From the NCBI GenBank assembly GCA_943372255.1, contig CALRXZ020000001.1, positions 9,191 to 73,190 on the forward strand: a stretch of DNA of 64,000 nt, read 5' to 3'. Source of the DNA: Chitinophaga pinensis. GTDB lineage: Bacteria; Bacteroidota; Bacteroidia; Chitinophagales; Chitinophagaceae. Under the pieces are notes generated by a model. It had not been told where the DNA came from, ran no database searches, and saw only the letters and a program-made list of their open reading frames with translations. A program made the position numbers and the translations under genes. Shown in pieces: positions 6,519 to 47,519 of this stretch (its first letter is position 1; each line of letters opens with the position of its first letter).

Positions 6519-6627
6519 AGTTCAAAATAAAAAACAAATTCTGTTGCAAATCTGAACTAGGATTTAGTTACGACTTCAGATTCTCTCCAAAATTAAACTG
6601 TATTTTACAACCTTAACTGGGCTGCAA

Positions 6628-14955: not shown

Positions 14956-15089
14956 AAATATCAGTTCAGCTGTTAAAACAATCTCTCAGCGTATCAAAAA
15001 GAACAACAATGCATCAGTTCAATTGTTTTAGATTTTGGCCAGTACCTGCAAATTTAAAAAACTTGTAGTTGAATTATAGAAACCCTCTT

Positions 15090-15821
15090 TTAATTCAGTT
15101 CTCCCAACCAAGCTGATAATTCCTTTTTAATAGCCTGCCCAATAATTTTTTGTTTGGCAGGGTCTGTTAATAAAGCCCTACTCATGGCATTGTCTCCAAT
15201 TTCTAACAATACTCTATAAGGCGCTTTGTTTACGTGTTCATCCAAACTATAAAAACTTAATTTGCCAGTTGCAGCACATTTGTAATCATTTCTTCCAGTG
15301 GTACTATCTAATAATACGCCCCTGTTCTCCAAATCAGTTGCAGCAGCAATAGCTTTGATTAATCTAGCAGCCAACACGCGATTAGCAGCTTCATAACTGT
15401 CTCCATAATGTATATAACCCCAAACAGCATTTCTTTTAGTGCCCCCATTGTTGTGAACAGCAATCAATACTTGTGGCTGCAGTTTATTAGCAGCTTCTAT
15501 CTCAAAAGCATAACCCGATATTTTGCCATCTACAACAGCCGATGTTTCTGCAATAGAAGTATTGCTACCCACATTGGCATGATGTACACCGGTCTCTCCA
15601 AAACTCCACACTTTGTATTCCTTTAAATGAGGTTTAGTTTCCATAGCCGCTTCAACAATGGCATTACAAGTGGCAGCTTCGCTAAAATCAACACCCGTAT
15701 TTGTCTGGTGCGATGGCTGCCATACAATCACTGGTTTCTTTTTCTCATCAGCGTTATTGGATTGATAAGACTGATTCAAACAGAAAATAAATAAGAGTAT
15801 TACTAGTTGTGTGCTTTTCAT
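15090..15821 (-). CDS. Secreted Amidase_3-like hydrolase (putative N-acetylmuramoyl-L-alanine amidase fold)
   Basis: Signal peptide. The pattern VIVWQPSHQTNTG ... LIAVHNNGG ... VLLEIGDN ... IGQAIKKEL resembles the Zn-amidase (Amidase_3) scaffold. Weak, by eye only. Confidence 0.35.
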   Translation of the reverse strand: MKSTQLVILLFIFCLNQSYQSNNADEKKKPVIVWQPSHQTNTGVDFSEAATCNAIVEAAMETKPHLKEYKVWSFGETGVHHANVGSNTSIAETSAVVDGKISGYAFEIEAANKLQPQVLIAVHNNGGTKRNAVWGYIHYGDSYEAANRVLAARLIKAIAAATDLENRGVLLDSTTGRNDYKCAATGKLSFYSLDEHVNKAPYRVLLEIGDNAMSRALLTDPAKQKIIGQAIKKELSAWLGELN

Positions 15822-15829
15822 GTAACAGA

Positions 15830-17788
15830 TTATTGATAATTCAAACCTGCACCAAATGGATACAAGGGGTTTTTGGTATCATAAGGTAGGTCTTCTTTTT
15901 GCTTTAAAATTTCTTCCATAGACGATGCCAATTCAAAAGGAAGTTTGCCAACAGGTTTAAACTTGCCTAGTATCAAATCAAGGATCACATTGTCTTGACT
16001 AGAAAAATCCGCAATTAATCCCTTGCTATATTTGTTGATATTGGGGATTACTGCGGGTCTTTGTAAATTAATTACCGTAATGGTTGGCTTTGACTGTATG
16101 ATTTTCAACAATTTTGCTTCTTCTTTTTCAGAGAACGCTAGAGATCCTAGGTTGAATAATTTTTGTAACAAATACTTTTCCTTACCTGCATTATTGGGAG
16201 TGTTTATTTTAAGCACCACAACATCGGCTTCTTCTATATTTTTCACCAGATTGGGATATCCCTTTGTTTCATTCTGATTAAATCCCTGTAAGAAGATCTT
16301 GGTGTTTCCTTTTAAGGGTAAAATATTGGATTCATTTTTTAGTAAAACCAATGATTTTTGCTGTGCTTCAATTCCTTTGGCAGCAAATTCTTTGTTGTTG
16401 ATAATCTTTACGCCTGTTGGATCCAAATAGGGATGTTCAAATAAACCCAAACGGAATTTTTCTTTTAAAATCCTCCTTACAGAACTATCAATTCTTTTTT
16501 CAGTAATCTTTCCTTCTTTAACCAACTCAACAACAATATTTGGAAGCGCTTCTCCTCCAAACATATCGCAGCCTGCGTTAATAATTTTCTCCACTCTTTG
16601 CTTGGCATTTAAATTTTCAACGCCATGTGCAGATGCAGGTTTTAAGGTATATCCAAATACAACCCCATCACTAACTAGCCCCCAATCAGTGCAAACAATT
16701 CCATCATAGTGGTATTGGTTTCTTAGTAAGCCAGTGATAATATCTTTATTATAACTAAAGCCTACATTCTCGCTTGTTTGATTCATGGGTAAACCATAGT
16801 AAGGCATGATTTGTGTAACACCTGCAGCAAATGCACCTTTCTCAAAAGGAATCAAATGGTATTTAAAATTATTACCTGGGTATACTTGATGACCGGGTGG
16901 AAAATGCGCGTCTCTTCCACCTTCCTGAGGTCCGCCACCAGAAAAATGCTTGACCATACACTCCACACTATTTTCATTAATACTATCTCCCTGAAAACCC
17001 AAGATATAGGCCTTGGTCATGAGCGCAGCTAGTTCTGCGTCTTCTCCAAATGTGCCATTGATTCTTCCCCATCTAGGTTCTGTAGCCAAATCTGCCATCG
17101 GAGATAAGGTAAGTCTAAACCCAAGCGCTTTGTATTCCTGTCTGGCAATATCGCCAAAGGCTCTAACCAAATTACTATCTCTTGTTGCAGCAAGTCCAAG
17201 TGTAGAAGGCCAGCTAGAGAAGAAAGGACTATAAATACTTGCTCCTGGTGCATTTGGAACACCATGTCTAGGATCTGTGGCAAGGGTTAAAGGAATCCCC
17301 AGTCTGGTTCTCTCCGCTAATTTTTGAATATTATTATGCCAAATCACCATGGCCTCCGGCGATGTAGATTGCAAAGTATTCAAATGATTCATATGCTTGC
17401 CCAAAACCATGGCTGAGTTGCCTTCAACTACATAAGAAATAGGATTGAAAATGGATTGGGTTTCACTTAAAGAACCATCACTATTCATGGCGGCCATGGT
17501 AATAAACATGGCACCTGCTTTTTCTTCCAAACTCATTTGACCAAGCAGGTTGGTAATCCTGTCTTCAATATTTGCGCGAGCATCCTCGTAAACATCTAGC
17601 TGCCCGTTTTTATTTAAATCCCTAAAATCCTTTCCGTCTATTTTCAGAATTGGCGCTTCTTTACCCAAGCGTTTTGCAGCATCCTGATAAATAAGATAAC
17701 TTTTGATGTATACACCAGTTAAAAAAATGGCAATAAGTACAATAATACTCAATAGGGTATAACCCAAAATCTTGAAGACCTTTTTCAT
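15830..17788 (-). CDS. Glycoside hydrolase family 3 (BglX-type beta-glucosidase/exo-glycosidase), N-terminally membrane anchored
   Basis: 652 aa with an N-terminal TM segment. Motifs are KHFSGGGPQEGGRDAH and a nucleophile context VCTDWG. Confidence 0.9.
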   Translation of the reverse strand: MKKVFKILGYTLLSIIVLIAIFLTGVYIKSYLIYQDAAKRLGKEAPILKIDGKDFRDLNKNGQLDVYEDARANIEDRITNLLGQMSLEEKAGAMFITMAAMNSDGSLSETQSIFNPISYVVEGNSAMVLGKHMNHLNTLQSTSPEAMVIWHNNIQKLAERTRLGIPLTLATDPRHGVPNAPGASIYSPFFSSWPSTLGLAATRDSNLVRAFGDIARQEYKALGFRLTLSPMADLATEPRWGRINGTFGEDAELAALMTKAYILGFQGDSINENSVECMVKHFSGGGPQEGGRDAHFPPGHQVYPGNNFKYHLIPFEKGAFAAGVTQIMPYYGLPMNQTSENVGFSYNKDIITGLLRNQYHYDGIVCTDWGLVSDGVVFGYTLKPASAHGVENLNAKQRVEKIINAGCDMFGGEALPNIVVELVKEGKITEKRIDSSVRRILKEKFRLGLFEHPYLDPTGVKIINNKEFAAKGIEAQQKSLVLLKNESNILPLKGNTKIFLQGFNQNETKGYPNLVKNIEEADVVVLKINTPNNAGKEKYLLQKLFNLGSLAFSEKEEAKLLKIIQSKPTITVINLQRPAVIPNINKYSKGLIADFSSQDNVILDLILGKFKPVGKLPFELASSMEEILKQKEDLPYDTKNPLYPFGAGLNYQ

Positions 17789-24505: not shown

Positions 24506-25663
24506 TCAAAAATGAAGTTTTTGTTTTAAAGATTTGAATCGGAAGACCACTAGTTCAATCCAAAACTGTTTAAATATTTTGCGGATAAGTGCGTGATCAT
24601 GAAAAGGAATAAATCTCCAATACCCCTTAGTATTAAAAACCCATGTTAAAAGGCCTTTGAAATCTTTATTCCAAGAAATTCTGCGAATGTCTTTATAGAA
24701 TAATGCTACTTCTATTTGAGGCTTATTCATGGTATAGCCTTTGAATCCAGATATATAATCACCATTGACTATCCTTTTTACAGCAGCAACAAAATCATTG
24801 TTTGTTAGAAATTTTGAATAAACCATCCATGAATTGGGTCTTGGATCTATTTCTATTAAATGATATTTTCCTGATTGCTTGTCATGGATGTAGAGAATAT
24901 TTGCAAATGCATTTAATCCCAGTTTATTACCCATGTCTATTAAAAGTGGGGCAATGTCATTATTCTGATAGAATATTCTTTTTGTTGTATAACTGAATTC
25001 ATTTGAACCATATTGCAATGCATTGGAACTATGATAGTGTAGTAAATTTCCTTTGTAAAAAAGGGCCTCCACAAAAATAACTTCCCCTACAATATATTCT
25101 TGCAATAAAATATCCTGTTTTGTATCTGACTTTGCTAAATGATTTTGAAGCTCTTCAAAATTATAACATACCGCCATATTAACCCCTCCATAACTCAGGT
25201 CTTGTTTGCTTACAAGAGGAAATTGTAAATCTGAAATTAAAGATTCAAGGTTATTTTGGTGCTGGTAAACAGCATACCCTGGGGTGTCTATTCCGTTATT
25301 CAAGCAAAAATTTGACAAACCTTTTTTTGAACTAAGTGAGCTTTTGTTTTGAATTAATTCTACAGGCAAAATCATGGCACACAAGCCCTGATTATCAATT
25401 GCGTCTGCCACATGTTTGATTAATAAGTCATCAGCCAGAATAACCCATTGGTAGTGATTGTTTTTTACATGATCCACCAATCTGTTGACATAGCCTTCAT
25501 CTGCTTTTCCACTATCAAATAAATTGTCTACATAATCAGTTTTTGTGAGCCAAGATAATTCTCCACAAAACGCATCAACTGTACAACCTGCTTTTTTTAG
25601 CATGGAAGGGATTTCTGAAATGGTATCCCAATTATCAAAACAGGCTATTAGAACTTTGAACAT
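24506..25663 (-). CDS. ATP-grasp domain protein (unknown ligase)
   Basis: The likely start is MFKVLIACFDNW at 25663, and the track's upstream extension looks spurious. It has a pre-ATP-grasp Rossmann-like N-terminus, LLQEYIVGE, and HLIEIDPRPNSW (E-x-N/D-P-R ATP-grasp motif). Confidence 0.6.
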   Translation of the reverse strand: MFKVLIACFDNWDTISEIPSMLKKAGCTVDAFCGELSWLTKTDYVDNLFDSGKADEGYVNRLVDHVKNNHYQWVILADDLLIKHVADAIDNQGLCAMILPVELIQNKSSLSSKKGLSNFCLNNGIDTPGYAVYQHQNNLESLISDLQFPLVSKQDLSYGGVNMAVCYNFEELQNHLAKSDTKQDILLQEYIVGEVIFVEALFYKGNLLHYHSSNALQYGSNEFSYTTKRIFYQNNDIAPLLIDMGNKLGLNAFANILYIHDKQSGKYHLIEIDPRPNSWMVYSKFLTNNDFVAAVKRIVNGDYISGFKGYTMNKPQIEVALFYKDIRRISWNKDFKGLLTWVFNTKGYWRFIPFHDHALIRKIFKQFWIELVVFRFKSLKQKLHF

Positions 25664-25727
25664 TGTATATAATAACTTAGAATATGAAGTTAAGGCAATG
25701 TTTGTACATTTGATACAAAGAATTATC

Positions 25728-26228
25728 ATGAAAAAGATTGCTGGAATCATAGCCATATTCATCCTATTTGACTTCTCTGTAGAGGCCCAGTGTAAAATTT
25801 CACAGGTTAAAAATGCAGATGGATCTTTATTTCTTTCAACAGAAAATAGCCTTATGTACCAGACTTCTAAAAAGAAATTGGTAGAAAGATTGGCTACTGA
25901 TAATGAACACTATTTTCTAGAAATTCTGCCTACTCCTTTTTTGCCAAAACCAGCGGGTTCAAAGGTCAAAAAAGACCTAACTGTAACGTTGAGCAATAAA
26001 AAGACCTATACCCTGAAGCACTTTGATTCTAGGTATTTAGACAAGGATAGCAGTTTCTCTTTACTATACTTATTCAATAGTAAAGACATTCCAGATTTTA
26101 AGCAATATAAAATCAATAGCATTGTCTTAAATGATGGCACTGCAGAGAATGCCACCTATAAATTGGTATTGCATCCAGATGCTATTCAAAAGCAGTTGGC
26201 TTGTTTTAATGACAACAAAAAGAAATAG
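25728..26228 (+). CDS. Hypothetical secreted protein
   Basis: The start MKKIAGIIAIFILFDFSVEAQ (signal peptide) is at 25728. The longer track ORF from 25545 overlaps the divergent ATP-grasp gene and is unlikely to be translated. Confidence 0.45.
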   Translation: MKKIAGIIAIFILFDFSVEAQCKISQVKNADGSLFLSTENSLMYQTSKKKLVERLATDNEHYFLEILPTPFLPKPAGSKVKKDLTVTLSNKKTYTLKHFDSRYLDKDSSFSLLYLFNSKDIPDFKQYKINSIVLNDGTAENATYKLVLHPDAIQKQLACFNDNKKK

Positions 26229-31205: not shown

Positions 31206-33821
31206 ATGAATATGGCAATTTTTGATCAAACGCCTATCTATCAATTGATTAGCAACCAAGCATTGTTGCATCCCAATAAAGTAGCCATTAAGTACAATGG
31301 AAAATCCATTACTTATGCTGAATTGGTTAAATCCGCTAATCAGTTTGCCAGCTTTATGGCTCAGAAAGCTGTTAAAAGAAATGAGATTGTGGTAGTTGCC
31401 ATGGATAGGTCTATTGAAATGGTAATAGCTATGATTGGGTTATTAAAATCCGGGATTACTTATTTGCCTATTTTACCCGATTATCCAAAAGATAGGCTCA
31501 ACTATATTTTAGAAAATAGCAACACGGGTCATATTTTATCTACTTATAAGTTCAAGGAACAATACGGTAAATATGCGGGTGCCATTTTTGTAGAAGAATT
31601 CTTAGAAGTTAAAGATAGTTTAGAAGAAAAACCTGATGATGGCATTGATCATTCAGACGATACTGCTTTTGCTTTATATACTTCAGGTTCAACTGGTTTA
31701 CCAAAAGGTGTAGAGATTGCACAGAAAAGTTTTTTAAACCACTTGCTGAGTATGCAATTGGTTCCAGGCATCACTAAGGATGATATTGTTTTAAACATTA
31801 CCACCATCACTTTTGATATTGCCCAATTAGAATTATTCCTGCCGTTGATTAGCGGTGCTCAGTTGTTTATTACTGATATGGATGAGTCCAGAGATGGTAG
31901 ATTATTATTAGAAACTATTGAGAAAGAACAAATTACCATTGTACAAGCAACACCATTTAACTGGCAAATTTTAATTGAATCAGGTTGGCAGAAAAAAATG
32001 CCAATTAAGGCACTGTGTGGTGGAGAGGCATTGAGCATGGACTTGGCTAAAAAACTTTGTTCAAGAGTACAGGAGTTGTGGAATGTATACGGTCCAACAG
32101 AAGCAACTATTTGGGCAACAGTGAAACAAATTCATTCAACAGACCACATCATTACTATTGGAAAACCAATGCATAATGTAGACGTTTATATACTCAATGA
32201 ACAGTTACAAGAAATGCCGGTGGATGAAGTGGGAGAAATTTATATTTCAGGCATTCAAGTAGGTAAGGGTTATATTAATAGACCTGAACTAACTGAAAAA
32301 GCATTTTTAAATGACCCTATTTCTAAAGATCCTGGCACAAGAATGTATAAAACCGGGGATCTAGGAAAGAGATTACCCAATGGAGAAATTCAATGTTTAG
32401 GAAGAATTGATCACCAAATCAAGATTAGAGGTAATAGGGTTGAGACAGAGGAAATAGAATTTCAAATTAAACAATACGATCAAGTTAAAAACGCCATAGT
32501 TGTTGGTCACAAAGATCATGTAGACAATATGCGTTTGGTAGCATACATAGAATTAGACAACCCAATTCCTGTTAATCAAGAACCTGAATTATTCAAAGCA
32601 ATTAAAGCATCCTTAGGTGCTACGTTGCCAGAGTATATGATTCCTACAGACTATATGGTTATTCAGGAAGTACCACTCATGTCTAATGGAAAAGTGAATA
32701 GAAAGGCTTTACCAGCACCAGTGCTTCAAGTGATTGACAGAGAAATTATTGCTCCTGAAACAACCCTTGAAAACCTGATGTTAACCATTTGGTCTAGAAA
32801 TTTAGGGCTGGAGAAAATTAGTGTGGAGGACAATTTCTTTGACCTAGGTGGGAATTCTTTAATAGCAACCAAGATCATGTTGCAGGTAGAACAGGAAACT
32901 GGTAAAAGATTACCTAATGCAACACTTTTCCAATACCAATCTATCAAAGATCTTTGTAAGGTTATTGAAAATAATATAGCTGAGAGTCCTTATAAAGTAT
33001 TGGTGCCAATGAAACCAACTGGTTCCAAAATGCCCATCTATATTGTACATGCCATTGGTTTGAACTTGATGTTCTTACGCAATGTTGTATTGTTGATGGA
33101 TGAAGATCAACCGGTATATGGTTTGCAAGCGCTTGGGTTAAATGGAATAGATGAGCCATTAGATAATATGGAAGCAATTGCTAGTTTTTACAACAATGAA
33201 ATCTTATTACATAATCCAAACGGTCCTTATATCATTGCCGGTTATTCCTTTGGGGGATATATTGCTTGGGAAATGGTGCGTCAATTAAAAGCAATGGGAA
33301 AAGATGTTCGCATGTTGGCAATGATGGATACCAATATTCAAGAACCATTATACCAGAAACCATTGCTAGAGCGATTTAGTAAAAAACTATTCCGCCAATG
33401 GAAAAAATTAATTTTTAGACTGGGTACTAGTTTCACATATCCAGCCGATACTTTGGATTATTTGAAAACTATTTATACCCATAGGTACAAGAAATTGCAA
33501 GATCAAGATTATGATTCTGAAAATATGCCCGTTTTCATGATGCGGATTGCAGACAAAATGGAACACGCATATTATCATTATTATTTTAAACCTCAGCACA
33601 TAAAAATTGATCAATTTATTTCTGAAAAAAGGATGTTCTTCATAGACGATCCAAAATATATGGGTTGGAAGAAGTTAGCCTTAGATGGAATTGAACAACA
33701 CCATATTCCTGGCGATCATAAAGACATGTTGTTCCCTCCCAATGACAAATTTTTTGCTCAGACCTTGCAAAAGAAGTTAAATCAGCTAAATCAGGAGCTT
33801 GCAAACCAGCAAACAACCTAA
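31206..33821 (+). CDS. Stand-alone NRPS-like enzyme: adenylation (glycine-like code) - peptidyl carrier - thioesterase (A-T-TE), no condensation domain
   Basis: All A-domain core motifs are present (LYTSGSTGLPKGV, FDIAQ, NVYGPTE, YKTGDL, GRIDHQIKIRGNRVE, NGKVNRK). The carrier motif is DNFFDLGGNSLI. The TE has GYSFGG, MMDT and GDH. Confidence 0.9.
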   Translation: MNMAIFDQTPIYQLISNQALLHPNKVAIKYNGKSITYAELVKSANQFASFMAQKAVKRNEIVVVAMDRSIEMVIAMIGLLKSGITYLPILPDYPKDRLNYILENSNTGHILSTYKFKEQYGKYAGAIFVEEFLEVKDSLEEKPDDGIDHSDDTAFALYTSGSTGLPKGVEIAQKSFLNHLLSMQLVPGITKDDIVLNITTITFDIAQLELFLPLISGAQLFITDMDESRDGRLLLETIEKEQITIVQATPFNWQILIESGWQKKMPIKALCGGEALSMDLAKKLCSRVQELWNVYGPTEATIWATVKQIHSTDHIITIGKPMHNVDVYILNEQLQEMPVDEVGEIYISGIQVGKGYINRPELTEKAFLNDPISKDPGTRMYKTGDLGKRLPNGEIQCLGRIDHQIKIRGNRVETEEIEFQIKQYDQVKNAIVVGHKDHVDNMRLVAYIELDNPIPVNQEPELFKAIKASLGATLPEYMIPTDYMVIQEVPLMSNGKVNRKALPAPVLQVIDREIIAPETTLENLMLTIWSRNLGLEKISVEDNFFDLGGNSLIATKIMLQVEQETGKRLPNATLFQYQSIKDLCKVIENNIAESPYKVLVPMKPTGSKMPIYIVHAIGLNLMFLRNVVLLMDEDQPVYGLQALGLNGIDEPLDNMEAIASFYNNEILLHNPNGPYIIAGYSFGGYIAWEMVRQLKAMGKDVRMLAMMDTNIQEPLYQKPLLERFSKKLFRQWKKLIFRLGTSFTYPADTLDYLKTIYTHRYKKLQDQDYDSENMPVFMMRIADKMEHAYYHYYFKPQHIKIDQFISEKRMFFIDDPKYMGWKKLALDGIEQHHIPGDHKDMLFPPNDKFFAQTLQKKLNQLNQELANQQTT

Positions 33822-34664
33822 ATGAAACTAGCCCATTTGATATTGGCATACCATGAACCAGTTCAATTGGAACGTTTAATTAGAAGATTAATGACGGCTA
33901 ATGCCGATATTTATATACAGCTAGACATCAAAGCCAATATGGCTGATTTTCAACACTTGGGTCAGTTGCATCAGGTTCAGTTTGTAAAAAATAGGTTGAA
34001 TGTGACCTGGGGCTTATACAGCATGGTAGAAGCAACCATACAGGGATATAAGCAAATTTTAGCATCCGGTCAGTCCTACACCCATATTAATCTAATGAGT
34101 GGTCAGGACTATCCTTTGAAAGCCGCAAAAACCATTGAGGATTTCTTTTTTTCAAATCAGGGTAAATCTTTCATGAAATTCAAACCCATATTTGAAGAAT
34201 GGCCTGAATCTATTAGAAGAATTACAAAATATGATATGGGAGATTATCAATTTCCTTTTCGATATCAATTACAAGGGATACTAAATAAGTGGATGCCAAA
34301 CAGGAAGATGCCACTTGGAATGAAGCCTTATGGCTTTTCTCAATGGATGACTATTTCCTTTGATGCTGCTGCCTATATTGTCAATTTTTTAGACAAAAAT
34401 TTTTTAGCAAAACATTTTTTTAAAATGACATTCTGTGTAGATGAATTAATCTTTCAAACCATCTTACTAAATTCTCCTTTTAAGAATACCATTGTTAATG
34501 ACCACTTGCGCGTAATCAAATTTCTAAAAGGATCTTATAGACCTAGAACCCTTTTAATCTCTGACGCTGAAATGCTAATTTCTTCAGGAAAATTCTTTGC
34601 TAGAAAATTTGTACCTGAAGAAGATACTGCCATACTAGATTATTTAGATAGTCACGCAACCTAA
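33822..34664 (+). CDS. Glycosyltransferase family 14 (core-2/I-branching beta-1,6-GlcNAc-transferase-like)
   Basis: The N-terminus MKLAHLILAYHEPVQLERLIRRL and NLMSGQDYPLK are characteristic of the Branch/GT14 domain. Its ATG directly abuts the NRPS-like stop codon (TAAATG). Confidence 0.8.
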   Translation: MKLAHLILAYHEPVQLERLIRRLMTANADIYIQLDIKANMADFQHLGQLHQVQFVKNRLNVTWGLYSMVEATIQGYKQILASGQSYTHINLMSGQDYPLKAAKTIEDFFFSNQGKSFMKFKPIFEEWPESIRRITKYDMGDYQFPFRYQLQGILNKWMPNRKMPLGMKPYGFSQWMTISFDAAAYIVNFLDKNFLAKHFFKMTFCVDELIFQTILLNSPFKNTIVNDHLRVIKFLKGSYRPRTLLISDAEMLISSGKFFARKFVPEEDTAILDYLDSHAT

Positions 34665-34764
34665 AATTTGACAATTTGAGTATTTGGTAACAATCTGGTA
34701 AAACTATCTTAACATTCTGGTTACTTACAGCTTTTAATTTGCGGTATCTCTTAAACCGCCCAAC

Positions 34765-34866
34765 ATGAAAAAGCTGTCCTATTTTCTACAGCAAATGCTA
34801 GTGGATCTAAGTATCCCCTTTTTGTTAAATGGATATTTGGGTTACAAATTCCATAAAATCCATTAA
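34765..34866 (+). CDS. Candidate 33-aa upstream small ORF coupled to the LpxH-family gene
   Basis: MKKLSYFLQQMLVDLSIPFLLNGYLGYKFHKIH. Its TAA stop (34864-34866) shares one base with the ATG at 34866 (TAATG). It is too short for the ORF track and there is no homology evidence. Confidence 0.2.
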   Translation: MKKLSYFLQQMLVDLSIPFLLNGYLGYKFHKIH

Positions 34867-35714
34867 TGGAGCAGAAAAGAAGAAAGCTTGATATACTTGT
34901 CTTATCAGACATACATCTTGGCACTTATGGCTGCCACGCAAAAGAACTACTCCATTACTTGAAGTCTGTAAAACCCAAAACCGTTATTTTAAACGGCGAT
35001 ATTATTGATATATGGCAATTCAGTAAAAGGTACTGGCCAAAATCACACATGAAAGTGGTAAAACACTTGATGCACTGGATGAGTAAGGGTGTAAAAATCT
35101 ATTATATCCCTGGCAACCATGATGAGATGCTTAGAAAATTCACGGGATGGCAATTGGGAAGTTTGAAAATAGTCAATAAGGTTGTACTGGATTTACCCAA
35201 CGATGGAAAAGCATGGTTTTTTCATGGAGATGTTTTTGATGTAACCATGCAGCATAGTAAGTGGTTGGCAAAATTGGGTGCTGTTGGATACGATACTTTG
35301 ATTTTAATTAATCGTTTGGTAAACTTTATTTCGGAAAGAGTTTTTGGGAAAGGCAAAATTTCATTGTCTAAAAAAATTAAAAACAGTGTAAAGTCAGCTG
35401 TTAAGTTCATCAATAATTTTGAGGAAACAGCTGCTGATATTGGTATTAGTAATCAATACAAGTACGTGGTTTGCGGCCATATTCACCAGCCGGAAATGAG
35501 AAAGATTGAAAATCAAGAAGGTGAAATCATGTATCTCAATAGCGGTGACTGGATTGAAAATCTTACTTCTCTGGAATATGTAAATGGTCAATGGACTATT
35601 TATAAGTTTAATCATGAACAATGGAAACAGGAGATAGAAACAGAAGAAGAGGAACCAGATAATCAACAGCTCTTTGACAGCTTGTTGGAAGAATTCAATT
35701 TAATGAAACAGTAA
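34866..35714 (+). CDS. LpxH-family metallophosphoesterase (UDP-2,3-diacylglucosamine pyrophosphatase-like)
   Basis: The calcineurin-like motifs occur in order: LSDIHLG, NGDIIDIW, GNHDE, FHGD and CGHIH. The size and N-terminus match the LpxH/COG2908 family. Confidence 0.8.
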   Translation: MEQKRRKLDILVLSDIHLGTYGCHAKELLHYLKSVKPKTVILNGDIIDIWQFSKRYWPKSHMKVVKHLMHWMSKGVKIYYIPGNHDEMLRKFTGWQLGSLKIVNKVVLDLPNDGKAWFFHGDVFDVTMQHSKWLAKLGAVGYDTLILINRLVNFISERVFGKGKISLSKKIKNSVKSAVKFINNFEETAADIGISNQYKYVVCGHIHQPEMRKIENQEGEIMYLNSGDWIENLTSLEYVNGQWTIYKFNHEQWKQEIETEEEEPDNQQLFDSLLEEFNLMKQ

Positions 35715-36805
35715 TGAGAATTTTATACGCCATTCAAGGAACTGGAAACGGTCATGTTAGCAGGGCAAGGGATATTATTCCATATTTACAGGAAAAGGGA
35801 TCAGTAGACCTTTTAATTAGCGGAATTCAGTCTGATGTTAATCTGCCTTATGAAATCAAGTATCAATTTAAGGGCTTAAGTTTCATCTTTGGTAAGAAGG
35901 GCGGAATAGACCTATTAGATACCTATAGAAAAAGCAATTTAAAAAGATTGTATCAAGAGATTCAATCGCTACCGGTTGAAGATTATGACTTGGTAATCAG
36001 TGATTTTGAACCAGTTAGTTCTTGGGCATGTAAATTGAAAAATAAACCATGTATTGGATTAAGTCATCAATCTGCAGTAATCAATAAGAAATCTCCCAAG
36101 CCTAAAAAAACAGATATGGTTGGCAAGGCCGTTCTGAATAATTATGCTCCAGTAGACATTTCTTATGGATTTCATTTTAAACAATACGATAAACAAATAT
36201 TCACACCTGTAATCAGAAGTCAAATTCGTCAGGCTAGTCCTGAAGACGCCGGACACTATACGGTATATCTACCGGCTTATAATGACGAGAGATTGTTGAA
36301 AGTCTTGACACAAATACCATTGGTAAAATGGCAGGTATTCAGTAAGCATACTAAAAAAGATTATAAGGTTAAAAATGTGCATATTCAACCCATCAATAAT
36401 GAGTTATTTGTTGAGAGTATGGTTAGTTGTACTGGGATACTTTGCGGAGCCGGATTTGAAACTCCAGCAGAGGCTTTGTTCCTGAAAAAAAAGCTAATGG
36501 TCATTCCTATGAAGGGTCAGTATGAGCAACACTGTAATGCAGCGGCGCTAAAAGAATTGGGTGTGCCCGTGATTAAATCATTAAAGCAAAAACATATTGG
36601 ATCAATAGAACAATGGATCAGACTTGAAAAGAAAATAATACTTGATTTTCCTGATCAAACGGAGCAAATTATTAATATTCTGGTAAAGGCAAATTATCAG
36701 AAATCAAGCGTTTCTCTCAAGGTACTGGGTCAGGGAATAAGTACTTGGAAACAATTCAAGCACCGCAGTTTTGGGAATATTCTCAGGCAACTTACCGAAC
36801 AATAG
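35714..36805 (+). CDS. GT-B glycosyltransferase of the MJ1255/TIGR00661 type (GT1/GT28-like)
   Basis: The N-terminus MRILYAIQGTGNGHVSRARDIIPYL is the family hallmark. The C-terminal half has GAGFETPAEAL, a nucleotide-sugar-binding motif. TAATG overlap with the LpxH-family gene. Confidence 0.75.
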   Translation: MRILYAIQGTGNGHVSRARDIIPYLQEKGSVDLLISGIQSDVNLPYEIKYQFKGLSFIFGKKGGIDLLDTYRKSNLKRLYQEIQSLPVEDYDLVISDFEPVSSWACKLKNKPCIGLSHQSAVINKKSPKPKKTDMVGKAVLNNYAPVDISYGFHFKQYDKQIFTPVIRSQIRQASPEDAGHYTVYLPAYNDERLLKVLTQIPLVKWQVFSKHTKKDYKVKNVHIQPINNELFVESMVSCTGILCGAGFETPAEALFLKKKLMVIPMKGQYEQHCNAAALKELGVPVIKSLKQKHIGSIEQWIRLEKKIILDFPDQTEQIINILVKANYQKSSVSLKVLGQGISTWKQFKHRSFGNILRQLTEQ

Positions 36806-36807
36806 AA

Positions 36808-38163
36808 ATGAATATTTCAGTAAAGGATTTTGGACCCAATTTTCACTGGGGAGTATCAACAGCCGCGTATCAAATAGAAGGTGCTCATGATAAATATGGG
36901 AAAGGGGCTTCAATCTGGGACCAATTTGTATTGAAAAAAAAGAAGATTCTAAATAATCATTCAGGAGAAATAGCATGCGATTTTTATCATAGATATGCTA
37001 ATGATTTGACCTTGGTTAAGAGACTGAATATTCCTAATTACAGGTTTTCCATTTCATGGTCTAGAATTCTTCCAAAGGGCATTGGCCAAGTAAACCAAGC
37101 AGGGATAGACTATTATCATCGTGTTATAGATTTTTGTATTGAATTAGGCATTGAGCCTTGGGTAACCTTATATCATTGGGATTTGCCCCAATGTTTGCAA
37201 GACAAAGGTGGCTGGACCAATAGAGATATCATACAATGGTTTAGTGTTTTTGTAGAAACCTGCGTTAAACATTTTGGGTCAAAAGTGAAGCATTGGATGG
37301 TTTTAAATGAACCCATGGTTTTTACAGGTGCAGGATACTTTTTGGGGGTGCACGCGCCTGGTAAGCGGGGACTAAATAATTTTTTGGCCGCAGCTCATCA
37401 TGCGTCACTTTGTCAAAGTGAGGGAGGGAGAATTTTAAAGTCAATTCAATCCAATCTAAAAGTAGGAACTACATTTTCTTACTCCCATATAGAGCCTTTA
37501 TTAGAAAGCAGCGAGAAAGATTGTAAAGCAGCTATAAAAGTAGATGCCCTTTTGAATAGACTTTTTCTAGAACCTTTATTGGGTTTGGGTTATCCAACAA
37601 AAGAACTGAAATTACTATCTAGGATTGAAAAATTCATGAAGCAACATGATGAAAACCTTTTACCGTTTTCTATGGATTTTATAGGGCTTCAAAATTATAC
37701 CAGAGAAAAAGTATCTCATTCTTACCTAATTCCCTTCTTACAGGCTAAAATTATAAAAGCTAATAAACGAGGTGTGCCAAGTACCCTAATGAATTGGGAA
37801 GTTCATCCTCCCAGTATTTTTAATGCACTTAAACGTTATGATTCATATGCTCAAATCAAAGAGATTATTGTAACAGAAAATGGAGCTTCTTTTGAAGATC
37901 AATTAGTAAACAATCAAGTCAATGATACTCAACGAACCTTGTATTTGCAGGAACATATAGAACAAGTTAGTTTAGCCAAGCAAATGGGTGTTCGAGTTAA
38001 TGGGTATTTTGTTTGGACACTCATGGATAATTTTGAATGGGCAGAAGGATTTCATCCCCGTTTTGGTTTGGTGCATGTTGATTTTATGACACAGAAACGA
38101 ACCATTAAAATGTCTGGAAATTGGTACAAACAATTTTTGTCTAATCTTACTGGGCTAGAATAA
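36808..38163 (+). CDS. Glycoside hydrolase family 1 (beta-glucosidase type)
   Basis: The likely start is MNISVKDFGPNFHWGVSTAAYQIEGA at 36808, 2 nt after the upstream stop. The acid/base motif is LNEP and the nucleophile motif is VTENG. Confidence 0.9.
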   Translation: MNISVKDFGPNFHWGVSTAAYQIEGAHDKYGKGASIWDQFVLKKKKILNNHSGEIACDFYHRYANDLTLVKRLNIPNYRFSISWSRILPKGIGQVNQAGIDYYHRVIDFCIELGIEPWVTLYHWDLPQCLQDKGGWTNRDIIQWFSVFVETCVKHFGSKVKHWMVLNEPMVFTGAGYFLGVHAPGKRGLNNFLAAAHHASLCQSEGGRILKSIQSNLKVGTTFSYSHIEPLLESSEKDCKAAIKVDALLNRLFLEPLLGLGYPTKELKLLSRIEKFMKQHDENLLPFSMDFIGLQNYTREKVSHSYLIPFLQAKIIKANKRGVPSTLMNWEVHPPSIFNALKRYDSYAQIKEIIVTENGASFEDQLVNNQVNDTQRTLYLQEHIEQVSLAKQMGVRVNGYFVWTLMDNFEWAEGFHPRFGLVHVDFMTQKRTIKMSGNWYKQFLSNLTGLE

Positions 38164-40096: not shown

Positions 40097-40281
40097 TGTA
40101 ATCGTATTTCTTATATGGCAATTTCAAAATCAAACAGTTAGATTAAAGGCAAATCATCTACAATCTTGATCTTGCTTTTACAATTTATTCTATAATAACC
40201 TAATCTCTAATTATTTTAATTATTTTCATATAGATTAAAATGTTTCATAGATAGTTTCTATTGGAACATTTGCAAAGTACT

Positions 40282-41877
40282 ATGAAAGAAGCAAATTTGG
40301 ACATTAGTGGCGTAAATGATCAAAGAGTCAATTGTATTAATGAAATCAAGAAAATTGACAAAATTTGGGATTTGGTGGTTATTGGGGGTGGTGCTACAGG
40401 ATTGGGGATTGCACTAGATGCTACTACCCGTGGTTATGCTGTTTTATTAGTTGAACAATCCGATTTTGCCAAGGGCACTTCTAGTAGAAGTACAAAATTG
40501 GTGCATGGGGGGGTTAGGTATTTGGCCAATGGAGAAATCAAATTGGTCAGAGAAGCTAGTATTGAAAGAGGAAGATTATATCAAAATGCCCCACATTTAG
40601 TCAAAGATCAATTATTTATAATACCAGTTTATTCTCTGTGGGAGCGGATAAAATATACCATTGGCTTAAAATGTTATGATTGGGTAGCTGGAAAAATGCG
40701 TTTGGGTTCTTCACATTTTATTTCAAAGGAAGAGACATTGGCCTTGATGCCAGGAATTAAAAAAGAAAACTTGGTAGGGGGTGTTGTTTATCATGATGGT
40801 CAATTTGATGACGCAAGACTGGCATTGAATTTAGCACAGACCATTTGGGATCATGGTGGTTATGCCATTAATTATTGTTCCGTAGTCAATTTACTTAAAA
40901 ACCAAGAACAGCAAATTTGCGGTGTTACATTAAAAGATATGGAAACGGGGATTGGTTATCCCATTCATTCAAAATCCGTAGTTAATGCTACTGGTGTATT
41001 TGCTGATGCGATACTTCAAATGGACAACCCAAATAATAGGAAAACCTTGAGTGTAAGTCAGGGTGTACATCTTGTATTGGACAAGTCTTTTTATCCTTCA
41101 AGCGAAGCGCTAATGATTCCTGAGACCAGTGATGGAAGGGTGCTTTTTGCCGTTCCTTGGCATGGAAAACTGGTAGTTGGTACTACGGATACTCCTGTTA
41201 ATGACGCTTCCTTAGAACCTATCGCTTTAGAAAAAGAAATAGCATTTATTTTAGATACTGCAGGTCTTTATTTAAACAAAAAGCCAACTAGGGCAGATGT
41301 CTTGAGTGTATTTGCTGGGCTTAGACCACTGGCATCTCCGGAACAGGGAAAACAGAAAACCAAAGAAATTTCCAGAGGCCACAGAATATTAGTATCGCCT
41401 TCAGGCTTATTTACCATTATTGGTGGAAAATGGACCACTTACCGTAAAATGGGTGAAGACATGGTCAATAGAATAGAGCAAAAGTTGCAATGGTCTTCAA
41501 GACCAACCGTAACAAAAACACTTCCCATTCATGGTTCTTCAATAACCACAGATTGGGATGACCTTTTTTATTTTTATGGTTCTGAAGCAACTAGCTTATG
41601 CAAGTTGATGAAGGAATCTCCTAATAATTGGATCAGTGAATCTTTACATATACATGAAGTGCAGATAGTCTGGGCCGTTAGACATGAAATGGCTAGAACA
41701 TTGGAAGATGTACTTTCTAGAAGAACCAGAACCTTATTATTAGATGCAAAAGAAAGTATAAGAATTGCTAGGCCTGTTGCTGAAATTATGGCAAGAGAAT
41801 TGGGTAATGATGAAAATTGGGCCAACAGTCAAGTAGAAGCGTATTTGCAATTGGCAGAGAAGTATACACTGCATTGA
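40282..41877 (+). CDS. glpD: FAD-dependent glycerol-3-phosphate dehydrogenase
   Basis: VIGGGATGLGIALDATTRGYAVLLVEQSDFAKGTSSRSTKLVHGGVRYL is the classic GlpD N-terminus. ATG at 40282, with an alternative TTG at 40261. Confidence 0.85.
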   Translation: MKEANLDISGVNDQRVNCINEIKKIDKIWDLVVIGGGATGLGIALDATTRGYAVLLVEQSDFAKGTSSRSTKLVHGGVRYLANGEIKLVREASIERGRLYQNAPHLVKDQLFIIPVYSLWERIKYTIGLKCYDWVAGKMRLGSSHFISKEETLALMPGIKKENLVGGVVYHDGQFDDARLALNLAQTIWDHGGYAINYCSVVNLLKNQEQQICGVTLKDMETGIGYPIHSKSVVNATGVFADAILQMDNPNNRKTLSVSQGVHLVLDKSFYPSSEALMIPETSDGRVLFAVPWHGKLVVGTTDTPVNDASLEPIALEKEIAFILDTAGLYLNKKPTRADVLSVFAGLRPLASPEQGKQKTKEISRGHRILVSPSGLFTIIGGKWTTYRKMGEDMVNRIEQKLQWSSRPTVTKTLPIHGSSITTDWDDLFYFYGSEATSLCKLMKESPNNWISESLHIHEVQIVWAVRHEMARTLEDVLSRRTRTLLLDAKESIRIARPVAEIMARELGNDENWANSQVEAYLQLAEKYTLH

Positions 41878-41939
41878 GATTAGAATAAAATAGACTTGAG
41901 GTAATTATATTGATTAACATGCGGCCTCAAAATCATAAC

Positions 41940-42524
41940 ATGAAACTGGAAGCGGAAATCCTCAAAAGAAGTGATAACAAATGTGAGCTCTGTGCATCAA
42001 CTGCATCTGTAAGCGTTTATGAAGTGCCGCCTCAGGATAAAACCAGTCATGATAATTGCATGGCAGTATGTGCCAATTGCTTAAGTCAAATTGATAAAAA
42101 GATTGCCCTAGACCAAGCCCATTGGAAATGTCTGAACGATGCTATGTGGAGCGAGGTTCCGGGGGTACAAGTTGTGGCTTGGCGCATGTTGAATAGGTTA
42201 AGAGAAGAGAGTTGGGCTGCTGATTTATTAGATATGATTTATTTGACAGATGAAAATCTTGCTTGGGCCAAAGCAACTGGTGACCATGAAAATGACGCTT
42301 CTGTAGATTTACATAAAGACAGTAATGGTACGCAACTGTTACAGGGAGATACCATTGTTTTGACTAAGTCTTTGGATGTAAAAGGGTCTACCTTAAATGC
42401 CAAAATGGGAACTGTTGTCAAGAATATTAGATTAGTTGAAAACAATACAGAACAAATTGAAGGTAAAATAGAGGGACAAACCATTGTGATCTTGACCAAA
42501 TATGTAAGAAAACAAGGGGTTTAG
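41940..42524 (+). CDS. phnA: PhnA domain protein
   Basis: N-terminal zinc ribbon (CELC...CANC) and the C-terminal PhnA beta-domain DSNGTQLLQGDTIVLTKSLDVKGSTLNAKMGTVVKNIRLV. Start chosen at MKLEAEILKRS. Confidence 0.75.
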   Translation: MKLEAEILKRSDNKCELCASTASVSVYEVPPQDKTSHDNCMAVCANCLSQIDKKIALDQAHWKCLNDAMWSEVPGVQVVAWRMLNRLREESWAADLLDMIYLTDENLAWAKATGDHENDASVDLHKDSNGTQLLQGDTIVLTKSLDVKGSTLNAKMGTVVKNIRLVENNTEQIEGKIEGQTIVILTKYVRKQGV

Positions 42525-45878: not shown

Positions 45879-47519
45879 ATGGGAGTGTATTTTCCTTATA
45901 GTAAGAAAATAGTATTACTAGTAATTCAAGTACTAGTATTTGTTAATTTGTTTGCACAACAAAATTTATTAACAAGCTCTAACTTGCCTATTGTGGTTAT
46001 TAATACCGGTGGACAGACCATTTTGGATGATCCTAAAATAACGGCAGATCTAGGAATTATTTACAATGGCACTGGACAGAGAAATGCTTTGACTGATGCA
46101 TTTAACCATTACAATGGGAAAATTGGTATTGAAATAAGGGGTCAGTCATCGCAGATGTTTCCTATGAAATCATATAGTATTGAATTGCGTTTGGCGGATG
46201 GTTCAAGTAATAATCAATCATTATTGGGAATGCCATCAGAAAGCGACTGGGTATTATATGCGCCATATACAGACAAAACTTTGATGCGTAATGTACTTGC
46301 TTATGGCATTAGTAATAGTTTGGGAAGGTATGCTGCGCGATGTAGGTATGTTGAATTAATACTAGATAATGATTATAAGGGTTTCTATGTATTAATGGAA
46401 AAAATCAAACCTGGAAGAGTTGGTATTGTGAAAATGAAAAAATCGGATATTGATGGTGATGCTTTGACGGGTGGATATATTTTTAGTTTGGACAAACAAC
46501 CCAATGCTTGGTATTCTTCTTTTCCTGCACTAAAGTCAATGAATCAAAGCTTTCCCCATTTCTCATATGTTTATCCAAAAGAGACTGATATAGTTCAACA
46601 ACAAAAAACCTATATCAAAAAGCAAGTAGATGATTTTGAAGCGGCATTGAATAGTAGCAATTTTCAAGACCCTTTGATTGGTGTAAGAAAATATGCAGAC
46701 TTGAATTCATTTATGGATTATTTTATTGTCAATGAAATTAGTAGAAATGTTGATGGCTATAGACTAAGTAGTTATTTTAATAAAGATAGAGATAGCAAAA
46801 ATTCCTTAATAAAGGCGGGCCCTGTATGGGATTATGATTTGGCATTTAGAAACGCCAATTATTGTAATGGAAGCAATGTGAATGGATGGGCATTTCAATT
46901 CAATTATGTCTGTCCTGGTGATGGCGCTGGTCTTGTACCGTTTTGGTGGGAAAAATTGTTTACAGATAGTAACTATGTTAAAGATTTGCATAAGCGGTGG
47001 ACTCAGCAAAGAACTACTGTATTAAAAACAGCTAATTTGAATCAAGTAATTGACTCAATTGTTCAATTAACCGATGAAGCAAGACAAAGGCATTTTAAAC
47101 GTTGGCCCATTTTGGGTCAATATATTTGGCCAAACCCCAATCCTATACCAAATTCATATACTGAAGAAATAAGCTATTTGAAAGTATGGCTAGATCAAAG
47201 ATTATTATGGATTGATCAAAATTTACCCAAACAAATTAAACCTAATTGGCCTGAGTCTAATACAGGAACAATGCAGATAAATGTTTTTCCCAATCCTATC
47301 AATAGCCGTTCTGTAATTCAGATTTTAGCAAAAGAAGAGCAAGAGATAAGTGTGGAATTATTTCAAGTAAATGGTAAGTTAGTTTTTTCTACAAAGAAAT
47401 TAATGGTCGCAGGCTTGAATCAAATTGACCAGAATTTGTCTTATTTATCTTCTGGAGTTTATTTATTAGTAATTAAAAATGGATCGGGTGAAAAAATAAT
47501 TACCAAACTAATTAAGTGA
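45879..47519 (+). CDS. CotH kinase-family protein with T9SS C-terminal sorting domain
   Basis: The CotH-type core includes LPIVVINTGGQTILDDPKI, GQSSQMFPMKSYSIEL and VNEISRNVDGYRLSSY. The C-terminal roughly 80 aa (VFPNPINSRSVIQI...GVYLLVIKNG) is a T9SS type A sorting domain. Confidence 0.8.
   Translation: MGVYFPYSKKIVLLVIQVLVFVNLFAQQNLLTSSNLPIVVINTGGQTILDDPKITADLGIIYNGTGQRNALTDAFNHYNGKIGIEIRGQSSQMFPMKSYSIELRLADGSSNNQSLLGMPSESDWVLYAPYTDKTLMRNVLAYGISNSLGRYAARCRYVELILDNDYKGFYVLMEKIKPGRVGIVKMKKSDIDGDALTGGYIFSLDKQPNAWYSSFPALKSMNQSFPHFSYVYPKETDIVQQQKTYIKKQVDDFEAALNSSNFQDPLIGVRKYADLNSFMDYFIVNEISRNVDGYRLSSYFNKDRDSKNSLIKAGPVWDYDLAFRNANYCNGSNVNGWAFQFNYVCPGDGAGLVPFWWEKLFTDSNYVKDLHKRWTQQRTTVLKTANLNQVIDSIVQLTDEARQRHFKRWPILGQYIWPNPNPIPNSYTEEISYLKVWLDQRLLWIDQNLPKQIKPNWPESNTGTMQINVFPNPINSRSVIQILAKEEQEISVELFQVNGKLVFSTKKLMVAGLNQIDQNLSYLSSGVYLLVIKNGSGEKIITKLIK

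Follow-up and report, generated by a model that had tools for sequence, protein, structure and literature searches.

Six consecutive genes on the forward strand at positions 31206-38163 of a 64,000-nucleotide (64-kb) stretch of a Chitinophaga pinensis genome (GenBank assembly GCA_943372255.1, contig CALRXZ020000001.1; hereafter the window) had been proposed, from the sequence alone, to form a single system around a paralog of LpxH. Our analysis of this original prediction indicates that the interval very probably consists of two independent, neighbouring modules whose juxtaposition is specific to one lineage, with a 200-nt gap as the boundary between them. Module 1 encodes a protein resembling a non-ribosomal peptide synthetase (NRPS), in which a plausibly glycine-specific adenylation (A) domain, a carrier (T) domain and a thioesterase-fold (TE) domain are fused (A(Gly)-T-TE; 31206-33821, 871 aa), followed by a glycosyltransferase of the GT14 (Branch) family (33822-34664, 280 aa). 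Module 2 encodes a 33-aa peptide from a small open reading frame (sORF; 34765-34866; MKKLSYFLQQMLVDLSIPFLLNGYLGYKFHKIH), a PlcP-family metallophosphoesterase (34866-35714, 282 aa), a GT-B glycosyltransferase of the MJ1255/VC2487 family (35714-36805, 363 aa) and a cytoplasmic beta-glucosidase of glycoside hydrolase family 1 (GH1; 36808-38163, 451 aa from the first ATG). We read module 2, together with the repeats upstream of it (34687-38163), as the Bacteroidota form of the lipid-renovation operon in which PlcP is paired with a glycosyltransferase, a kind of operon with which bacteria replace phospholipids by glycolipids under phosphate scarcity. Module 1 is a candidate system for the carrier-dependent attachment of glycine to a glycan. 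Gene content, family membership, the independence of the two modules, and the conservation of the sORF and of the upstream repeats are shown by the data; the substrate lipids and their products, the part played by the GH1 enzyme, the control by phosphate and the glycyl acceptor of module 1 are inferred. Our confidence in this full functional account of the two modules is moderate.

The two halves of the locus are separate in more distant genomes

The gene layout described in the original prediction was borne out. The list of open reading frames and their translations place all six genes on the forward strand at the coordinates given above, the domain assignments are supported by profile searches (Pfam, NCBIfam), and the tight junctions can be read straight from the sequence. 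The ATG of the GT14 gene abuts the stop codon of the A-T-TE gene (ACAACCTAAATG, TAAATG), a TAATG overlap joins the sORF to the metallophosphoesterase gene (CATTAATGG) and another joins the metallophosphoesterase gene to the GT-B gene (CAGTAATGAG), while the GT-B and GH1 genes are 2 nt apart (TAGAAATG). The sole real gap in the six-gene interval lies at 34665-34865 (200 nt, the last 101 of which are taken up by the sORF), and base composition is even throughout.

We compared the neighbourhoods of relatives of both halves within a radius of 10 kb, scoring module 2 by its trio of metallophosphoesterase, GT-B and GH1 genes. The loci came from a Chitinophagaceae metagenome-assembled genome (L001), Mucilaginibacter corticis (L002), Ferruginibacter-type genomes (L003, L004), close relatives of the window (L005, L006), Chitinophagaceae bacterium BSSC1 (L173; GCA_002256435.1, contig NKJC01000001.1) and Parabacteroides distasonis (L170), in addition to L088, L089 and L172. 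The A-T-TE and GT14 genes recur without the trio in Chitinophagaceae, Mucilaginibacter and metagenomes, with L001, L002, L088 and L089 as examples, and in L001 and L002 neither the metallophosphoesterase nor the GT-B nor the GH1 gene was found within 10 kb of the A-T-TE gene. The trio, in turn, is present in the Ferruginibacter-type genomes with no A-T-TE or Branch gene upstream, and no A-T-TE gene at the PlcP locus at all. The halves are separate in every more distant genome examined (L001-L004, L088, L089, L170 and L172), and among the genomes examined all five larger genes and the sORF co-occur only in close relatives of the window (L005, L006 and BSSC1). The window is collinear with the BSSC1 contig over the compared stretch, from a DUF2490 gene to a GH130 gene (~26.2-45.7 kb), and the six proteins are 86-97% identical between the two.

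Sequence divergence also differs by unit, with the PlcP-like protein being 79-83% identical in the Ferruginibacter-type genomes, compared to 66% for the nearest A-T-TE protein outside the window's lineage. A scan of metagenome loci with a related TE domain found an LpxH-like gene, GT-B or GH1 gene within 10 kb in none of 80 cases. A scan of genome contigs with the full A-T-TE alignment, which was keyed on the A3 motif YTSGSTGxPK common to all A domains, yielded for the most part NRPS genes without a close relationship to it, and among the matches listed none was accompanied by a Branch, PlcP-like, GT-B or GH1 gene. The neighbouring of the two transcription units is thus restricted to this Chitinophagaceae lineage.

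Since the adjacency is absent in distant genomes, the unity of the six genes is not supported. The original prediction had itself named a lack of conserved adjacency in related genomes as grounds for rejecting it, and this is what the comparison revealed. In the system it envisaged, an LpxH paralog and two glycosyltransferases would build a diacylglucosamine-type glycolipid that the A-T-TE protein esterifies with glycine. Such a system would account for the common strand, the tight junctions and the presence of all six genes together in L005, L006 and BSSC1. In addition, no terminator was detected between the GT14 gene and the sORF by a terminator scan, leaving room for read-through from module 1 into module 2, which weighs against two separate units; sigma-70 promoter and terminator scanning is uninformative for this phylum. 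A single co-functional system is nevertheless highly improbable given that its halves lie apart in all of the more distant genomes and are unlinked in 80/80 metagenome relatives, that the gap holds a conserved promoter-like region of its own, and that the metallophosphoesterase is of the PlcP type rather than the LpxH type.

The metallophosphoesterase belongs to the PlcP clade

The product of 34866-35714, which had been taken for an LpxH paralog and is of the type formerly called LpxH2, is by its sequence a member of the PlcP clade. It carries a Metallophos domain and its best NCBIfam match is LpxH, at 46.6 bits compared to a cut-off of 134; neither of the LpxH equivalog models NF003743 and TIGR01854 is passed (46.6 vs 134 and 38.9 vs 190.35 bits, respectively). 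By BLASTP, the protein is 38% identical to PA3219 of Pseudomonas aeruginosa (181 bits) and 38% identical to SMc00171 of Sinorhizobium meliloti (152 bits), compared to 23% identity with Escherichia coli LpxH (37 bits). Both PlcP-type sequences were reached by a translated search of a plasmid collection, in which they sit in mislabelled chromosomal records. The S. meliloti match lies beside genes for an acyl-homoserine-lactone synthase and a LuxR-type regulator, and we take it to be SMc00171. The P. aeruginosa match overlaps a family-1 glycosyltransferase gene, which is the PA3219-PA3218 arrangement (PMC8528852).

Alignment revealed many motifs that are common to the metallophosphoesterase and PlcP and are missing from LpxH; the motifs in common include GDIIDxW, GNHDE, HGDxFDV, VKxAVxFIxxFE and CGHIH. 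LpxH is also the best match among solved structures, with an E-value of 1e-6 only. Arg80 and Asp122 are important in LpxH; the metallophosphoesterase lacks both Arg80 and the insert that carries Asp122. In block 3 it reads GNHD and not GNR(D), and the 9-residue LpxH segment that follows HGD is deleted. The Arg of the GNR motif separates LpxH from LpxH2 (Opiyo 2010, PMC3087551). Characterised PlcP enzymes are Mn-dependent phospholipases C that release diacylglycerol under phosphate limitation (PMC4796936, PMC8528852, PMC9239053). The premise of an LpxH paralog accordingly had to be given up, as the characterised relatives of the protein cleave phospholipids to diacylglycerol and not UDP-diacylglucosamine (PMC4796936, PMC8528852), and any glycolipid made here is more likely to be a glycosyl-diacylglycerol than a diacylglucosamine lipid.

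A different function would be the housekeeping hydrolysis of UDP-2,3-diacylglucosamine in the lipid A pathway of Bacteroidota, with a PlcP-clade enzyme taking the place of LpxH, in which case the adjacent glycosyltransferase would be unrelated or linked to lipid A or lipopolysaccharide. Three observations speak for this function and weigh against a lipid-renovation role. The protein is very strongly conserved (79-97% identity across Chitinophagaceae, Ferruginibacter-type genomes included), which gives it the look of a housekeeping enzyme; chlamydial LpxG, which carries out the same reaction, also has GNHD, making the motif compatible with a UDP-diacylglucosamine hydrolase; and Porphyromonas gingivalis has an LpxH2-type candidate only, with neither LpxH nor LpxI (Opiyo et al., PMC3087551). 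The position of LpxH at the top of the PDB and NCBIfam matches and the occurrence of the metallophosphoesterase-glycosyltransferase pair in gut Parabacteroides point the same way. Within the 64-kb window, no second LpxH/PlcP homologue was found. On the other hand, 37 bits to E. coli LpxH compare with 181 bits to the characterised phospholipase PA3219, both curated LpxH cut-offs are missed by far, and Arg80 and the Asp122 insert are absent. The P. aeruginosa LpxH2 protein failed to complement E. coli lpxH, according to the statement quoted in PMC3087551. Moreover, Flavobacterium and Dokdonia genes annotated as PlcP are induced by phosphorus starvation, which would be odd for a constitutive essential step, and Dokdonia has two listed family members (PMC4796936). 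We consider the lipid A function, which is compatible with an additional role as a phospholipase, somewhat unlikely.

The GT-B glycosyltransferase and its GH1 partner

The protein encoded at 35714-36805 is, as judged from profile matches, a divergent member of the MJ1255/VC2487 family (TIGR00661). It matches PF13528 with an E-value of 1e-33 (117 bits vs 25), and TIGR00661 is by far its best model, with 165 bits compared to a cut-off of 195.9. A search of the PDB found no sequence relative among solved structures. An AlphaFold (AF2) model built from 25 homologues was of moderate quality, with a mean predicted local distance difference test score (pLDDT) of 69 and a well-predicted C-terminal domain. 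Foldseek with this model retrieved GT1 UDP-glycosyltransferases with hydrophobic aglycones (YojK, YjiC, OleD and sterol glucosyltransferase) as well as MurG. GT1 enzymes and MurG are inverting and convert a UDP-alpha-sugar to a beta-glycoside. An inverting fold would therefore imply a beta-glycoside product, and this fits a GH1 beta-glucosidase as partner.

The GH1 protein (36808-38163) scores 522.5 bits with TIGR03356, above the equivalog cut-off of 478.5, and the catalytic motifs LNEP and TENG are visible in its translation. Its gene directly follows the GT-B gene in every Chitinophagaceae example, including L003, L004, L005 and BSSC1, and is absent in Parabacteroides and Aureibacter.

The metallophosphoesterase-glycosyltransferase pair has a wider distribution, being kept in L003-L005, L170, L172 and BSSC1. 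The GT-B protein is 56% identical to the PlcP-linked glycosyltransferase of Aureibacter. Its homology to the Parabacteroides glycosyltransferase, whose gene overlaps that of the PlcP-like protein, extends along the entire protein (21%, E 2e-11), and the Parabacteroides enzyme itself scores 66.7 bits with TIGR00661. In the gut Bacteroidales species P. distasonis (NZ_OY725790.1; L170, 4992-6913), where a PlcP-clade gene overlaps the gene of an MJ1255-family glycosyltransferase, the former is annotated as a lipid A enzyme. The P. distasonis pair raises the question of which protein carries out the LpxH step in Bacteroidota.

Conserved repeats and a micro-protein gene upstream of the metallophosphoesterase gene

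The sequences preceding the metallophosphoesterase gene in five genomes were aligned. Three hexamers on the forward strand at 34687-34714 (GTAACA, GTAAAA and TTAACA), with a spacing of 11 bp, are kept in register in L003, L004, L005 and L006 despite diverged intergenic flanks. They are followed by an invariant A-TTTG element, located ~25 nt upstream of the sORF start, which resembles a Bacteroidota -7 box. Direct repeats with a period of one helical turn are what OmpR/PhoB-type regulators bind, and we regard the hexamers as a candidate OmpR/PhoB-type regulator site together with the promoter of module 2. Counted in the window, the repeat pattern weighs against this assignment, as it occurs once compared to 0.39 expected at up to 1 mismatch, which alone is not significant; the meaning of the repeats comes from their conservation and not from window statistics.

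The sORF that follows is 33 codons long in five Chitinophagaceae genomes, where its product starts with MK(K/N)..YF and ends with KF(H/Y)KIH. The TAATG overlap with the next gene is likewise constant in the five genomes, and the hydrophobic middle of the peptide varies strongly between lineages, including L003 and L004. The peptide has no Pfam or NCBIfam match, and no such sORF is present upstream of the Parabacteroides homologue of the PlcP-like gene. Given that length, ends and overlap are conserved around a divergent middle, the sORF would be translated as a micro-protein that is part of module 2, and this product is probably a membrane micro-protein.

A proposed role of module 2 in lipid renovation

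In the mechanism that we propose for module 2, the PlcP-type metallophosphoesterase would remove the phospho-head group from membrane phospholipids to yield diacylglycerol, which the inverting GT-B enzyme would then glycosylate from a UDP-sugar, giving a beta-glycosyl-diacylglycerol. The GH1 beta-glucosidase may strip off the sugar head group once it is no longer needed, and the 33-aa peptide might act as a membrane-associated accessory. Transcription would start from a promoter belonging to the module itself and be controlled by a regulator of the OmpR/PhoB type, with phosphate limitation as the most likely signal.

Part of this arrangement had been noted before. Supplementary Table S2 of Sebastian et al. 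2015 (PMC4796936) tabulates ~40 Bacteroidetes with plcP beside an 'uncharacterised glycosyltransferase'; follow-up work on this PlcP-linked glycosyltransferase of Bacteroidetes was not found in the literature searched. The suggestion that the locus has an architecture previously undescribed in Bacteroidota must therefore be restricted to module 1, for which no description was found in the same literature, and does not extend to the PlcP-glycosyltransferase pair. In P. aeruginosa, PA3219 overlaps the glycosyltransferase gene Agt1, as the corresponding genes do here (PMC8528852). A Dokdonia gene of the PlcP family was shown by reverse transcription PCR to be induced on phosphorus starvation (PMC4796936). 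In Flavobacterium johnsoniae, Fjoh_4577, which is annotated as PlcP and whose orthology to the window protein is an assumption, has a log2 fold change of 8.6 under phosphate depletion (PMC8115612).

Weighing against a glycolipid product, only aminolipids and no glycolipid were reported for phosphorus-starved Dokdonia (PMC4796936). Dokdonia sp. MED134 is listed twice in Table S2 of that study, in one entry with an uncharacterised glycosyltransferase as neighbour and in the other with none, which suggests that it has two genes of the PlcP/LpxH2 family.

At 4101-8570, the window also has genes for a TonB-dependent receptor of the OMP_b-brl_3 type, a response regulator of the OmpR type and a histidine kinase of the PorY family. 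In L004, the same receptor, regulator and kinase genes immediately precede the PlcP-like gene, the regulators being 53% identical. We considered the regulator and kinase (window 6628-8570) as a PhoBR pair and rejected them, since in NCBIfam the kinase belongs to the PorY family and the regulator falls under the Bacteroidota PhoB cut-off, which again weighs against phosphate control. Just downstream of the operon (window 40261-42524) are genes for a GlpD-type glycerol-3-phosphate dehydrogenase and PhnA/YjdM, and L005 additionally has a gene for a glycerophosphodiester phosphodiesterase (GDPD) with a SusC/D pair (14401-16947). These genes lend a flavour of phosphorus or head-group salvage to the surroundings and provide weak contextual support.

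A glycine-type adenylating enzyme with a fused carrier and thioesterase

The NRPS-like protein of module 1 has its A domain at ~31254-32693, its carrier domain at ~32781-32963 and its thioesterase-fold domain at ~33036-33731, with Pfam E-values of 1e-74 (AMP-binding), 2e-14 (PP-binding) and 2e-15 (Thioesterase). The protein passes the amino-acid adenylation model TIGR01733 (391 bits vs a cut-off of 317), and the DltA models of NCBIfam also match its A domain. The T and TE active sites are intact, as had been claimed: the carrier serine S551 (codon 32856-32858) and the triad S681/D708/H838 are invariant in 25 homologues, and so is K496, the A10 lysine.

A glycine-type A domain, which had likewise been proposed, is plausible. 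The Stachelhaus code mapped by hand is DILQLGVIWK (D204, I205, L208, Q247, L270, G272, V294, I302, W303 and K496), a 9/10 match to the canonical glycine code DILQLGLIWK, with the positions mapped through GrsA numbering. Among PDB entries, AB3403 (4ZXH) is the sole match over the full length of the A-T-TE protein (residues 11-856) and also the best TE match, whereas the best single-A-domain structure in the core region is 5U89, with 4ZXH also close. Both of these A domains are presumably glycine-activating. LgrA, which ranked first among the PDB matches, was dropped as support for glycine, since its score sums two A domains and its Val and Gly modules match almost equally well. Pks13 TE is among the top matches of the TE domain (E 1e-8 over ~100 residues).

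The protein appears to act outside peptide synthesis. It has no PF00668 match and hence no recognisable condensation domain, and no other NRPS gene was found among 36 scanned window ORFs of at least 150 aa, with five ORFs of this size unscanned. A DltB-like MBOAT or AlmG-type transferase was not found among the scanned window neighbours, and Rfam identified neither a riboswitch nor any other RNA; in particular, no glycine riboswitch was found ahead of the A-T-TE gene. As the protein would load glycine without a peptide partner, its TE domain would have to release the glycyl group by hydrolysis or hand it to an acceptor other than a peptide.

The neighbourhoods of the A-T-TE family point to glycoconjugate assembly

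The GT14 protein (33822-34664) matches PF02485 with an E-value of 1.6e-19 (70.9 bits compared to a gathering threshold of 23.4) over model positions 1-237/250, and lacks a membrane anchor at the N-terminus. Among solved structures, human xylosyltransferase 1 (XT1; 8e-8) is closest to it, and XT1 and C2GnT are its only PDB matches. In all A-T-TE relatives of at least 50% identity (L001, L002, L005, L006, L088, L089 and BSSC1), the GT14 gene is directly downstream. Relatives of the A-T-TE gene are common in Chitinophagaceae, Mucilaginibacter, Pedobacter and Puia; identity is 66% in the Chitinophagaceae metagenome-assembled genome (L001) and 52% in M. corticis (L002), with the Branch gene next to it in both cases. 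In M. corticis, the two genes lie inside an exopolysaccharide cluster that also encodes a flippase, a phosphopantetheinyl transferase (PPTase) and the phosphoglycosyl transferase of the initiating step.

Among the more distantly related standalone A-T-TE genes, about 20 share one conserved cluster in the order hexapeptide acyltransferase, Wzx-type flippase, GT4, GT2, A-T-TE, GT2, GT2 (the last with a GT21-like signature). Downstream sequence was available for 27 standalone relatives, and in ~18 of these the stop codon of the A-T-TE gene lies within 40 nt of the start of a gene for a GT14 or GT2 glycosyltransferase, both of the GT-A fold. Versions with a condensation domain (C-A-T-TE) follow a protein combining a fatty acyl-AMP ligase (FAAL) with a polyketide synthase (PKS), and are in turn followed by a PPTase gene and often by GT2, GT2 and Branch or polysaccharide genes. 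Judged from these neighbourhoods, the recurrent theme of the A-T-TE family is glycoconjugate assembly, and it is this theme that leads us to propose that the TE domain transfers glycine onto a sugar. A-T-TE proteins in polysaccharide clusters were not found described in the literature searched.

Two sets of metagenome loci illustrate the larger clusters. L093-L112 and similar loci, which probably derive from Mucilaginibacter, have the gene order Hexapep acetyltransferase, Wzx flippase, GT4, GT2, A-T-TE, GT2, GT2. In L129, L130, L134, L135, L141 and L147, the order FAAL-PKS, C-A-T-TE, PPTase, GT2 (GT21-like), GT2, Branch/GT14 recurs, which would fit a glycosylated lipo-glycine product and whose logic recalls glycopeptidolipid loci.

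For module 1, we propose that the A domain would activate glycine and load it onto the fused carrier, which requires a PPTase encoded elsewhere. The TE domain would take up the glycyl group on Ser681 and, instead of extending a peptide, transfer it to an acceptor. This acceptor could be a sugar in a glycan of the envelope or the extracellular space, and it is probably the coupled GT14 enzyme that attaches this sugar. The idea that a fused A-T-TE protein aminoacylates an envelope glycoconjugate thus stays viable for the first two genes, although not in one system with the other four. More broadly, an A(Gly)-T-TE protein and the glycosyltransferase next to it might constitute a new, single-polypeptide route of carrier-dependent glycylation, in which the TE domain would act as the glycyl transferase and a sugar on a Wzx-dependent polysaccharide or glycolipid as its acceptor, and which would be widespread in Chitinophagia and Sphingobacteriia; we put this forward as a tentative possibility.

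Several observations weigh against the glycylation of a glycan. A PPTase gene was not found within the 64-kb window, nor was a glycan cluster or a flippase gene found there around module 1, and a minority of the distant A-T-TE relatives are not flanked by a glycosyltransferase gene. Furthermore, no glycine-substituted glycan from this bacterial group was found in the literature searched, and we know of none. The A-T-TE and GT14 proteins might instead make a small diffusible metabolite, such as a glycosylated glycine derivative, a glycine oligomer or a cyclodimer released by the TE domain. The lack of glycan-assembly genes around the pair in both the window and L001 would agree with this, as would the non-glycosyltransferase neighbours of some distant relatives and the C-A-T-TE relatives, which follow FAAL-PKS megasynthases and, as AB3403 does, resemble lipo-amino-acid pathways. 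Yet most standalone A-T-TE relatives sit between glycosyltransferase genes with a Wzx flippase and an acetyltransferase near, which is the signature of a lipid-linked repeat unit, and the pair in the window has beside it none of the transporter or tailoring genes expected of a metabolite cluster. We consider a small diffusible product unlikely.

Other window genes and implications

Elsewhere in the window are genes for a RimK-like ATP-grasp protein (24506-25762), a CotH-type kinase with a sorting tail of the type IX secretion system (45879-47519), a neutral/alkaline ceramidase-like protein (54992-56350) and an RPE65-family oxygenase (57836-60001). No evidence links any of them to the six-gene interval.

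Splitting the locus into two modules averts a false lead, namely a system for a glycine-modified, lipid-A-like glycolipid. The automated name 'UDP-2,3-diacylglucosamine diphosphatase' on these Bacteroidota proteins rests on distant resemblance; by sequence they are of the PlcP type. Module 2 poses the question of whether Bacteroidota renovate their membranes with beta-glycosyl-diacylglycerol by means of a non-Agt glycosyltransferase, a micro-protein and a beta-glucosidase. It also poses the question of which enzyme carries out the LpxH step in this phylum, for which a PlcP-clade enzyme as the missing UDP-diacylglucosamine hydrolase is a separate possibility. For module 1, the question is whether the fused glycine-activating A-T-TE protein places glycine on polysaccharides. 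Glycine substituents are common on bacterial glycans and, to our knowledge, most of the enzymes that add them are unknown.

Comparison with known systems

Module 1 resembles the Dlt system, which D-alanylates teichoic acids, and AlmEFG of Vibrio cholerae, which places glycine on lipid A, in that an adenylating enzyme loads an amino acid onto a phosphopantetheinyl carrier for an envelope glycoconjugate, AlmE also using glycine. Unlike in those systems, the ligase, the carrier and the putative transferase of the window are one polypeptide whose partner is a GT14 enzyme, and a separate carrier and membrane transferase (the MBOAT protein DltB or the LpxL-type AlmG) are not encoded nearby in the window. 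The C-A(Gly)-T-TE termination module AB3403 of Acinetobacter baumannii (4ZXH/4ZXI) matches the protein across A, T and TE, but has a condensation domain and belongs to a lipopeptide-type pathway, whereas the window protein lacks this domain and is paired with a glycosyltransferase. A mechanistic precedent for the proposed transfer is provided by the TE domain of mycobacterial Pks13, in which the TE-fold end of a carrier enzyme passes an acyl group to a sugar hydroxyl (of trehalose) instead of to water; this domain is distantly related and transfers a mycolyl rather than an aminoacyl group.

The metallophosphoesterase of module 2 has in common with LpxH the calcineurin-like fold, a lid inserted between HGD and GHxH, and all metal-binding motifs. 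It differs in its low identity to LpxH (23%, 37 bits), in having GNHD for GNRD, in missing the 9-residue segment after HGD and in scoring under both family cut-offs. The closest likeness is to the PlcP-Agt operons, as represented by S. meliloti SMc00171, Phaeobacter MED193, SAR11 HTCC7211 and P. aeruginosa PA3219-PA3218. Module 2 shares with these a metallophosphoesterase of the same clade (38% identical to PA3219), its translational coupling to a downstream glycosyltransferase, and upstream direct repeats with 11-bp spacing, as in Pho boxes. In contrast to Agt, which is a retaining GT4 enzyme, with PA3218 matching GT4-type models, the glycosyltransferase of module 2 matches PF13528/TIGR00661 only and has a predicted fold of the inverting GT1/MurG-like type, and the module adds the conserved 33-aa sORF and the GH1 beta-glucosidase. 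The existence of module 2 in Bacteroidetes is already on record (PMC4796936), and its glycosyltransferase family, sORF and GH1 enzyme set it apart from PlcP-Agt.

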